A stretch of 20,857 nt of DNA from Octopus sinensis. Taxonomy: Eukaryota. Position numbers and translations under genes: made by a program. The notes beneath the pieces are model-generated. The model was given only the letters and a program-made list of their open reading frames with translations, was not told where the DNA came from and did no database searches. The stretch spans positions 1 through 20,857 of the forward strand of contig NW_021823992.1 of assembly GCF_006345805.1 (NCBI RefSeq). The letters are read 5' to 3'. Of this stretch, positions 11,660 through 20,826 are shown one piece after another. How positions within the stretch are numbered: the first letter of the stretch is position 1; every line of letters begins with the position of its first letter.

Positions 11660-11996
11660 ACCTACCTACCTACCTACCTACCTACTTACCTAGCAAGCTA
11701 TTTATGTACCTATCCTTCTATCTATCTATCTATCTAGCCATCAATCAATCAATCAGTCAGTTAATCAATCAATATATCTATCTATATATCTATCTGTCTG
11801 TCTGCCTGTCTATCTGTCTGTCTGTCTTCTATCTTTCTATCAATCAATTTATCTAATTATCTATCGATCTATCTACCAAGCTAGCTTGCTACATAACTAT
11901 CTAATTATGTATCTATCCTTCTATCTGTCTGTCAAGGCATCAATCTATCAATCAATCAATCTGTCAGTCAATCTATCTATCGATCTGTCTATCTAT
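11552..11996. repeat. (TCTA)n/(TCTG)n/(CCTA)n/(TCAA)n tetranucleotide tract
   Basis: Directly visible; continues after the LINE at 12801-13030. Confidence 0.95.
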
Positions 11997-12423
11997 GCCG
12001 ACCTGCCCGAGATGCGGGCAGAGCGACGAAACCGCTCTGCACGTAATCGTGCAGTGTCCAGCAATTTCCGACCTGTGGGCTTATGTCGAACGACTGCTGT
12101 CACGTGTGGGACGTGTCGGTTTATCAGCCGAGTCTATCGTTAATATCGTCACGCCTCCTTCCTTCAAACGGGAAGGAAGTGCTATTTTCATCATACTTGT
12201 GGCTATGGCGAAAGAATGTATCTGGTGGACGCGCCTGAAAGGATTAGAGACAAACACTTTCCTCTCTGGTCAATCTCTCATCAACTTCTTCAAGTATCAC
12301 TTGAAGAGGAAAGTGAGAGTAGAGAGGCAAGTTTTGTCTAGTGAATGTTTTAAAAAAAGATGGGTGAATGTAGCAAGGATGGCACGTATGAATGACGAAG
12401 CCACCTTGACTATGATTCTATGA
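11995..12423 (+). pseudogene. LINE ORF2 C-terminal fragment with CCHC zinc knuckle (zf-RVT-like)
   Basis: CPRCGQSDETALHVIVQCP (C-x2-C-x8-H-x4-C), then DLW and AKECIWWTR, typical of L1/Tx1 ORF2 ends. The ATG is formed at the microsatellite junction. The frame is uninterrupted, so the copy is likely young. Confidence 0.85.
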
Positions 12424-15040: not shown

Positions 15041-15063
15041 CCTTTTAATTTTACAAGTATTCT

Positions 15064-15428
15064 TGTTTCTTTACTACCCACAAGGGGCTAAACATAGAGA
15101 GAACAAACAAGGACAGACAAAGGCATTAAGTCGATTACATCGACCCCAGTGCATAACTGGTACTTAATTTATCGACCCCGAAAGGATGAAAGGCAAAGTC
15201 AACCTCGGCGGAATTTGAACTCAGAACGTAACTGCAGACGAAATACCTATTTCTTTACTAGGCACAAGGAGCTAAACACAGAGAGGACAAACAAGGACAG
15301 ACAAACGGATTAAGTTGATTATATCAACCCCAGTGCGTAACTGGTACTTATTTAATCGACCCCGAAAGGATAAAAGGCAAAGTCGACCTCGGCGGAATTT
15401 CAACTCAGAACGTAGCAGCAGACGAAAT
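15064..15428 (-). mobile_element. SINE family A headless dimer (2 x ~184 bp)
   Basis: Junction at 15246/15247; homology stops at 15428, within ~2 nt of the unit boundary; no A-box head. Confidence 0.9.
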
Positions 15429-15765
15429 TGTATGCACCTGGACACTTCATCAAAGAGGTTTCCAGAGATCTTTTAGTGTTTCGTGTCTTTTATAACAATC
15501 AAACACCTAAGCGATCCACCTTGAGTGTCCACACCTATCTAATCAACACTATATCCCAGGTAACACTTACCTCTTCTAGAGCTCATAAATGCGTCGAATT
15601 TTAAACGACAGAAGACTAGGTTTTCAACCACCAACATATGACATTTTGTAGATCCGCATACACATTTTTAAAATTAACAGACCGTCAACCCGCCAACGAG
15701 GATGTAGATCGAATATAATTTAGCACATTGACACAGCCATGACTTCTATGGCATATTACAAAGTG

Positions 15766-16191: not shown

Positions 16192-16240
<49 letters not shown>
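15766..16240. repeat. (CA)n, (TCTA)n and (TA)n tracts
   Basis: Directly visible. Confidence 0.93.
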
Positions 16241-16241
<1 letters not shown>

Positions 16242-16243
<2 letters not shown>

Positions 16244-16660
16244 ATAGAAATATTAAAATTACTAAGTCTCTATAAAAGAGATTACGACAGCGTTTACTGG
16301 AAATTATTTTTATCGCCATATTAATATGGCATTCTTATAGATATAAGATAATCGCTGCCGCTGGTCAGCTCCATGAGGCCACCGCCTTAAGATAGCTATT
16401 GATACACGATCTGTATCCATTATAACCTTCGAACAAGGGAGGTCAGCCGCTTCACACTGCCAGTCCGACAGCTACAGACGCGTTTCGGGGTATTGCCCCT
16501 TGTCAATGTAGCGCAGTCAGACCCCGCAGGTGTCGCCACTGACGTCTCTGTTCGAAGGCTTATATTTACCTAGTTTCAGTGGAATACATCCACTTGTTTT
16601 CAATAATAGAAATATTAAAATTACTCTATAAGAATGCCATATTAATATGACGATAACAAT
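16242..16660 (-). mobile_element. Short non-coding hammerhead-bearing element (Penelope-like pLTR or retrozyme-like) between (TA)n tracts
   Basis: 22-bp direct repeat 16242-16263/16604-16625; 32-bp inverted repeat 16310-16341/16625-16656 (one mismatch); central hammerhead. Confidence 0.65.
16471..16512 (-). ncRNA. Minimal type-I hammerhead ribozyme, U3-A8 core variant
   Basis: Minus strand GCUACA-UUGACAA-GGGG-CAAUA-CCCC-GAAA-CGCG-UC|UGUAGC: perfect 6-bp stem I, 4-bp stem II, palindromic stem III (ACGCGU), GUC cleavage triplet. Confidence 0.82.
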
Positions 16661-16662
16661 TA

Positions 16663-16696
<34 letters not shown>

Positions 16697-17934: not shown

Positions 17935-18800
17935 CAGGGTGACACAAAAGGAAAAAACGAGAATTTTTGAAAAACCCAACGAAAACAGGAAAAATCCAAA
18001 TCTAACAAAAAGAAAAATTATTGACAAATTAAACTACTAGCCTTTTAAGAATCAGTAATCAATCCAAATTATTAATGTCCGAAAATTACATCCTGTAGAT
18101 GGCGTACTTCTCTACGTATGCATTATTTTCTACTCTAGGCACCAGGCCCGAAATTTTGGGGGAAGGGCCAGTCGATTAAATCTACTCCAGTATGTAACTG
18201 GTCCTTAATTTACCGAATCCGAAAGGATGAAAGGCAAAGTCGACCTCGGCGGAATTTGAACTCAAATACCTATTTCTTTACTACCCACAAGGGGCTAAAC
18301 ACAGAGAGGACAAACAAGGACAGACAAACGGATTAAGTCGATTACATCGACCCCAGTGCGTAACTGGTACTCAATTTATCGACCCCGAAAGGATGAAAGG
18401 CAAAGTCGACCTCGGCGGAATTTGAACTCAGAACGTAGCGGCAGACGAAATATCGCTAAGTATTTCGCCCGGCGTGCTAACGTTTCTGCCAGCTCGCCGC
18501 CTTCCTCGGCGATGCATTCTACCCATCTGCCGTTGAGGTTCCCCATTGCTCGGAGCAACATCTCAGTTGATATACTACCAATTTCGTCTTCAATTCTTTG
18601 TTTCACTTCATCCAATGTCCTCGGCCGAACCGTGTAGACTCGACTCTGAAGGTAGCCTCACAAGAAAAAAATCACAAACGGAGAAATCCGGTGTTCATGG
18701 AAGGTCAGTGAACGCCCCCGAATCTTAAGATGACACGGTTATCAAACAATCTCGCACAACTGCCATTGGTTGCCTTCTAGTGGGCGATGTCACGCCATCC
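17935..18800 (-). mobile_element. DD41D (rosa/Visitor-type) Tc1/mariner remnant: right end plus transposase C-terminal part, split by SINEs
   Basis: TA|CAGGGTG terminus at 17933-17941. After correcting frameshifts the minus strand reads DGVTSPT..VILRFGGVH*P..PDFSVCDFFL*GYLQSRVYTVRPRTLDEVKQRIEDEI..WVECI (18800-18505) and CIRREVRHLQDVIFGH* (~18125-18072). Confidence 0.82.
18126..18502 (-). mobile_element. SINE family A full monomer joined to a second unit carrying the alternative tail
   Basis: Head GGCGGCGAGCTGGCAGAAACG at ~18501; junction AAAGAAATAG|GTATTT at 18270/18269; the second unit has an internal deletion and an AAATTTCGGGCCTGGTGCC tail. Confidence 0.88.
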
Positions 18801-20668: not shown

Positions 20669-20826
20669 CGACGGGCTTCTTCAGTTTCCGTCAACCAATG
20701 CACTCACAAGGCTTTGGTCGGCCCAAAGCTATAGTAGAGACACTTGCCCAAGGTGCCACGCAGTGGGTCTGAACCCGGAACCATGTGGTTGGTAAGCAGC
20801 TACTACCACACAGCCACTCCTACGCC
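20669..20826 (-). mobile_element. SINE family B 5' half
   Basis: Reverse complement of 6208-6371 with an intact head. Confidence 0.88.

Follow-up and report, generated by a model that had tools for sequence, protein, structure and literature searches.

The window analyzed here, the whole 20,857-nt stretch at positions 1 to 20,857 of Octopus sinensis contig NW_021823992.1, contains one insertion of a repeat family, flanked by (TA)n on both sides (Table 1). The family is a 362-nt non-coding repeat with more than 1,300 hammerhead motifs in the genome. The long arm is recognizable as a partial tandem from a 22-nt direct repeat spaced 362 nt apart, and the element as a whole is wider than the original prediction had drawn it. 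Elsewhere in the window, a dispersed repeat with a 184-nt period, presumably SINE-like, forms direct and inverted partial tandems that are ∼90% alike (551–850, 2462–3063, 4351–4650, 5242–5909, 15059–15542, and 18170–18565). A 148-nt tandem array of ∼12 units (7152–8928 and 20738–20798) has a tRNA-like head by eye; ARAGORN reports no tRNA gene in the window, this array included. A 172-aa open stretch (11905–12423, plus strand) contains a CxxC-H-C zinc-knuckle-like segment and resembles, we assume, the C-terminus of a LINE ORF2.

Table 1. Parts of the insertion and its flanks, in window coordinates
Feature	Position	Strand	Basis
Left (TA)n target flank; target duplication unreadable in window copy	16196..16241	.	
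Whole insertion (L001): long minus arm and short inverted plus arm, 3′ ends outward, in (TA)n	16242..16666	.	
Long arm, 384 nt (362-nt monomer plus 22 nt of next unit), ending at tailed end B	16242..16625	-	
Tail, ∼60 nt between ends A and B, at one end of two-armed insertions	16242..16300	-	
Monomer, 362 nt, 42.8% GC, without meaningful ORF	16264..16625	-	tandem period, composition, ORF scan
GCCAUA/UAUGGC hairpin just upstream of tail-less end A (∼16304–16301)	16315..16330	-	96% of cells paired, no two-sided change
Imperfect 133-nt rod prolonging stem I, hammerhead at tip	16426..16558	-	fold z = −6.2; pairing across copies
Type I hammerhead, U3-A8 core	16471..16512	-	sequence, family counts, covariation
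Second hammerhead-like motif, needs extra bases	16563..16608	-	in all 5 subfamily representatives
Short inverted 5′-truncated arm, ∼42 nt, ending at site A	16625..16666	+	
Right (TA)n target flank	16667..16693	.	

Read from 16512 down to 16471, the minus strand has the complete topology of a type I hammerhead; the core UUGACAA, with its changes at positions 3 and 8, lies at the coordinates where it had been predicted. Stem I is GCUACA/UGUAGC (6 bp, 16512–16507 with 16476–16471), followed by the core at 16506–16500 (U3 at 16506, A8 at 16501), a 4-bp stem II (GGGG/CCCC, loop CAAUA), the GAAA at 16486–16483, and a stem III, ACGCGU, that is self-complementary. The cleavage triplet is GUC, with C17 at 16477 and a predicted cut at 16477/16476. 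The sequence thus has what defines a type I hammerhead: a Watson–Crick 3-8 pair, three stems around the core, and an NUH triplet. With a relaxed descriptor, none of 20 000 shuffles of the unit yields any hammerhead, and the whole window gives two matches only, both inside the 362-nt unit. No Rfam hammerhead model matches here (E up to 5–10), and the other Rfam matches are microsatellite-driven or due to chance; the miss is a limit of the models and does not define the hammerhead class. Beyond the 6-bp stem I lies an internal loop (UGC or UAC over U), and loop 2 is CAAUA, CAACUA, or CAAAUA, a layout that may resemble the canonical arrangement of loop 1–loop 2 contacts. The motif is real; self-cleavage is predicted from it.

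The U3-A8 pair is a property of the family and not of this copy. A DNA search of the 2.72-Gb genome returned 2,162 candidates (40 scored, identity 92–100%), and when an exact 27-nt pattern was run with positions 3, 7, and 8 unconstrained, it found 1,381 matches, against 0 for the control. U3-A8 is present in 1,359 of these matches and C3-G8 in none, which rules out a CUGACGA family consensus, the case that would have reduced the window copy to two chance changes. Twenty matches depart from U3 (7 C and 13 A), every one retaining A8, and two depart from A8. The compensatory variant that the original prediction proposed is therefore family-wide, but it is less novel than was implied: U3-A8 covariation in nature, active in vitro, was reported by Perreault in 2011 (PMC3088659), and ∼1,300 Schistosoma motifs of the PLE (Penelope-like element) type with U3-A8 were reported in 2014 (PMC4209133).

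Other positions vary in ways compatible with the fold. The free core position 7 is C in 22 and A in 78 of the first 100 matches listed, and U in further subfamilies, which carry stem II AGGG/CCCU or stem III ACGU or ACGUCGU. These stem III forms (ACGU in 7/39 matches, ACGUCGU in 27/39) are both self-complementary, as is ACGCGU, so that the predicted palindromic stem III extends to every form found in the family; in every subfamily it consists of a single A-U pair capped by a loop that is self-complementary. There are at least five subfamilies, whose five representatives are 85–90% alike, with 91 of the 362 positions variable; 11 of the 12 core positions under constraint are identical in all five, weak evidence when taken alone (P ∼ 0.03 even for 12/12), and the lone exception appears private to one copy. 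The most conserved block is m1–60 (1/60 variable, compared with 8/42 in the hammerhead). Tandem arrays reach ∼10 units, with a period of 358–365 nt in 19 distinct cut-to-cut units, and the family is young.

A C3-G8 sister family was sought and rejected: the corresponding pattern gave 90 matches versus 16 in the control; none of them has the family stem II, and no homology appeared in the 30 that were retrieved. The commonest class of these matches is transposase coding sequence (10 loci inspected), presumably mariner. Four contig sets, three of them guessed to be RNA, cover 16254–16625 and span the predicted cut, and one of their contigs joins unit end to unit start; such contigs do not reveal ends, strand, or circles. 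In contigs labeled with three species names (X1, X2, X11, and X17), family variants occur at identities of at least 85%, and the family is probably common to related species. Three copies (L098, L112, and L166) look mosaic between subfamilies, which suggests template switching or recombination. We also observed an older repeat family of ∼350 nt, 70–82% alike (L093, L097, L099, L101, L102, L104–L106, L110, and L118, ∼1300–1750), with a U3-A8 core, stem III ACGCGU and, in some copies, inverted arms and (TA)n flanks. It lacks BLAST homology to the window's unit and is possibly a second U3-A8 retrozyme family.

To describe how copies are inserted, we assembled 105 insertion clusters, with overlapping loci merged, from three sources: the 30 loci with the highest scores, the copies that come first on contig 1, and a sample with U7. 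The arms have two fixed 3′ ends: A, at ∼m320–325, and B, 60 nt further at m23 of the next unit. Forty-eight clusters are one-armed, lacking the inverted arm (27 end at B, 19 at A, and 2 are odd), and 57 are two-armed and head-to-head: 50 are A+B, 1 is B+B, none is A+A, and 6 have an odd end. Once two duplicated loci are removed, A+B accounts for 48 of 55 two-armed insertions. The shorter arm measures 38–927 nt, and arms exceeding 362 nt always run into another copy of the unit, for up to 3,567 nt, and never into an ORF; no cluster among the 105 has an LTR-internal-LTR layout. Targets are mostly (TA)n and AT-rich. Repeats of at least 10 nt that contain G or C and are common to the two flanks occur in 17 of 48 insertions (shuffled pairings: mean 1.6, maximum 5), and of the 16 two-armed insertions with both flanks readable, 13 have a direct repeat of at least 10 nt, mostly 10–14 nt. 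Partial tandem, inverted 5′-truncated copy, tail at one end, and AT-rich or microsatellite target are all present, which is the footprint reported for PLEs, with a tail there of 30–40 bp (PMC8557442, PMC3846280).

The 5′ ends of the arms bear on the template. Only 3 of 140 lie near the cut site (3.5 expected), with no pile-up, so that a linear cleaved monomer as template is rejected. Fold-back priming as the general origin of inverted arms was rejected as well: the 5′ ends lie within 12 nt of each other at only 6 of 46 junctions (3.2 expected). Junction overlaps are mostly 0–7 nt. The 5′ ends do cluster at m180–209 (25/140, P = 2e−4, for a region chosen after the data were seen); stalling of reverse transcriptase (RT) inside the rod, or joins made via the rod's inverted base, may account for this. 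Five independent subfamily A insertions (L064, L075, L171, L178, and L185) are 5′-truncated at m87, inside the rod.

The unit is extensively paired. The 133-nt rod folds at −69.5 kcal/mol, a value equaled by 0 of 200 shuffles, which bears out the nested extensions of stem I that had been predicted as far as 16426/16558; the predicted tattga/tcaata pairing occurs in no fold obtained. We examined covariation in 24 hand-picked copies from four subfamily groups, with the structure taken from the window copy: 95.6% of cells are paired, against 32–50% in slid controls. Six pairs have changed on both sides, one in stem I (A-U/G-C), one at the base of stem II (G-C/A-U), three in the rod, and one in a side hairpin; they represent about six events among few lineages and not 24 independent sequences, and their count alone is not significant (104/500 shuffles). 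With three such pairs and 93% of cells paired, the rod stems are conserved and covarying among copies, as had been expected of them. The minimum-energy fold ties up part of the hammerhead core in pairing.

The original prediction went further and had 32-bp inverted repeats closing a viroid-like rod. One rival reading adds RNA-to-RNA replication to such a rod, and another makes the element a DNA transposon of the MITE type, whose inverted ends are fixed; on either account the terminal inverted repeats would belong to the element. The window copy invites this view, with a 347-nt span that folds nearly as a rod (z = −11.2) and a flanking inverted repeat of 41 nt at 90% identity (16301–16341 versus 16625–16665). 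That repeat exists because of the short inverted arm of this one insertion, and it does not close the rod of the family: as seen above, the arm is missing from almost half of the clusters and differs widely in length among the rest. Seven natural monomers folded as circles (z from −4 to −10) form one rod plus a branched multi-hairpin domain, and tandem arrays and 5′ truncation indicate retrotransposition. The relaxed descriptor finds an antisense hammerhead in none of the five subfamily representatives, so the RNA is not viroid-like. This reading is largely refuted, and we give it hardly any credence.

The second descriptor match in the unit has a U3-A8 core, UUGAAAA (16603–16597), a stem II GUGGA/UCCAC, a GAAA at 16577–16574, CUAGG, and UA. 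Chance hardly produces it (0/20 000 whole-unit shuffles, and 3/20 000 when the AT-rich segment is shuffled, with a descriptor that had been loosened once the motif was known), and a pattern search for its relatives returns mostly family variants among the matches. Its stems I and II have extra bases beside them, and at least 48 of the 179 copies counted (a tally in which overlapping loci enter twice) have G at A15.1, so the motif is probably inactive and, to judge from this sequence, vestigial. End B coincides with the 5′ edge of the motif, inside the stretch of the unit that varies least.

A PLE resident in the genome encodes RT and GIY-YIG domains in 780-aa open frames and is Neptune-type as judged from its CxxC linker by comparison with PMC8557442. 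Young copies lie at L152:3253-6262 and L154:1174-4874, with many intact frames of 780–781 aa and, overlapping upstream, an open frame of up to 479 aa that has no Pfam match. Its insertions have a tail of ∼37 nt and (TA)n targets; of five two-armed ones, four are A+B and one is B+B. The hammerhead at its 3′ end has a U3-A8 core, UUGAUAA, in 24 of 25 cases, and U3-A8 cores occur in resident PLE 3′ ends at 7 of 30 GIY-YIG loci. Further hammerhead-like motifs at PLE 3′ ends (L155 at ∼5872 on the plus strand, the L135/L151 3′ end, and L220 at ∼450) have A3-U8 (AUGAAUA) or UUGAAAA cores and an ACCGGU stem III, which implies that the 3-8 pair varies among the PLEs of this genome. No homology of the monomer to autonomous PLEs was found in 98 PLE-centred loci (30 GIY-YIG loci, 8 extended PLE loci, 30 Poseidon-like loci, which are an old family with many stops, and 30 Neptune 3′ ends), a small sample beside the 5,029 GIY-YIG candidates, of which 150 were scored. 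The Neptune-type PLE is therefore a candidate mobilizer of the family and not an identified partner.

The shared insertion anatomy and the U3-A8 cores in PLE 3′ ends, together with the small fraction of candidates scored, leave some room for the copies being 5′-truncated pseudo-LTR remnants of an unsampled autonomous PLE and not an independent non-autonomous unit. Against this, long arms enter the same unit again and never an ORF, and the 6-bp stem I and 4-bp stem II resemble those of retrozymes and not the minimal PLE form. PLE fragments near seven family-containing loci stand apart from the element or tail-to-tail with it in the same (TA)n (at L160, L014, and L030 this arrangement was judged from coordinates only). 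We regard the remnant explanation as very unlikely. The element itself has no RT/GIY-YIG ORF, so it is not an autonomous PLE; nor is it a viroid or a MITE.

The original assignment to a non-autonomous retroelement of the Penelope or retrozyme kind agrees with PLE-type insertions of a retrozyme-sized unit without an ORF. Several features that define non-LTR retrozymes are found: tandem units of 150–450 bp with a type I hammerhead, GC below 50%, no ORF, and target duplications longer than 4 bp. We therefore read the window locus as one insertion of a U3-A8 type I hammerhead family that is likely a new non-LTR retrozyme family, whose RNA would be cut, likely circularized, and likely reverse-transcribed by PLE proteins into AT-rich sites (probability roughly 0.8); cleavage is predicted from sequence, and the PLE partner is a candidate only. 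Tandem copies would be transcribed and then cut after GUC, probably best as dimers because of the one-pair, self-complementary stem III; by analogy, this stem fits dimeric cleavage as in axolotl HHR_Amex1 (PMC7229834). We lean toward ligation of the monomers into circles, with uncut multimers as the alternative template; one or the other is called for because arms cross the cut, reach 3,567 nt, and rarely begin near it. The PLE GIY-YIG endonuclease would nick both strands ∼12 bp apart, and DNA synthesis would begin or be resolved at the fixed site A on one side and, 60 nt away in the unit, at the fixed site B on the other. Synthesis would continue past the position of the cut through as many as ∼10 units, and the arms would join head-to-head, often through a few shared bases.

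Divergence speaks to the circles in two directions. Subfamily A differs by 0.9–1.0% within insertions versus 2.4% between them, and in subfamily C divergence within one arm (2.0%) equals that between loci (2.0%), the other arm giving 1.3%. Subfamily C does not favor a single circular template, and rolling synthesis around one circle is no more than plausible. Catalysis also has points against it. The minimum-energy fold pairs part of the core, a dimeric hammerhead could form from the long rod only through strand exchange, and in vitro 8 of 9 retrozyme dimers from Xenopus stayed uncleaved (10.64898/2026.07.22.740005).

That assay result also favors a PLE-mobilized, SINE-like repeat whose hammerhead is silent or irrelevant, with uncut multimers as template and structure kept for recognition by reverse transcriptase. 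Arms that cross the cut freely, 5′ ends that do not collect there, and a conservation peak in m1–60 and not in the hammerhead would be expected of such a repeat. Yet the changes in the core region are those that a hammerhead allows (position 7 varies freely, stems I and II are compensated, and stem III is self-complementary in all three forms), and U3-A8 is reported as active in vitro (PMC3088659). We consider the silent repeat unlikely, and keep to the retrozyme reading. A bolder version of the latter would take the family as direct genomic proof that Penelope RT and endonuclease integrate animal retrozyme circles via a pair of fixed sites, one for each target strand and 60 nt from each other, with the conserved second motif at the tail end as a relic or recognition signal of the PLE partner; we hold this tentatively and would sooner doubt it than rely on it.

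Both U3-A8 hammerheads and retrozymes are already published; what is new is the genomic evidence for a PLE mobilizer and the second hammerhead-like motif. In mussel, Cervera and de la Pena (2020, PMC7229834) described non-LTR retrozymes of 350–390 bp, and metazoan non-LTR retrozymes, as that source presents them, share with the octopus family the unit size, GC below 50%, one type I hammerhead per unit, tandems, lack of an ORF, target duplications longer than 4 bp, and a highly paired fold; HHR_Amex1 has the same one-pair stem III with a palindromic tetraloop. The octopus family differs in its U3-A8 core, its second hammerhead-like motif, and its arrangement, for the most part short partial tandems accompanied by inverted arms and a tail, of which the text covered from that article gives no account.

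With endonuclease-bearing PLEs (Craig 2021, PMC8557442; Arkhipova 2013, PMC3846280), the family shares partial tandems, the inverted 5′-truncated copy, the one-end tail, short target duplications, and microsatellite targets, whereas its unit has no RT/GIY-YIG ORF, no homology to the sampled PLEs, and a tail of ∼60 nt. Its core covariation is that of the published U3-A8 variants (PMC3088659), among them the Schistosoma Cercyon PLE motifs (PMC4209133), which are reported as minimal-descriptor matches, heterogeneous and mostly single; in contrast, the octopus core sits in a retrozyme-sized type I fold of a young, homogeneous tandem family. A 2026 preprint ties Xenopus retrozymes to PLE pseudo-LTRs (bioRxiv 10.64898/2026.07.22.740005), and we share its conclusion that retrozymes are non-autonomous dependants of PLEs; the preprint rests on co-occurrence and sequence homology, whereas the octopus case rests on insertion anatomy, homology not having been found. 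The literature covered, with repeat databases (Repbase, Dfam) and supplements outside its scope, contains no description of the octopus family, nor of tails and inverted arms in retrozymes.

With more than 1,300 motifs in this genome and no Rfam match, the family suggests that entire retrozyme families escape searches restricted to C3-G8 or to Rfam models. The autonomous mobilizer of animal retrozymes has been stated as an open question (PMC7761336, PMC7229834), and the mechanism of PLE tails and inversions is described as unresolved (PMC8557442). A strict one-tail rule in a young, homogeneous family, together with an intact PLE under the same rule, makes both questions testable, and if the reading of two-site integration is true, the 362-nt RNA would be a minimal substrate for solving how PLE tails and inversions arise.
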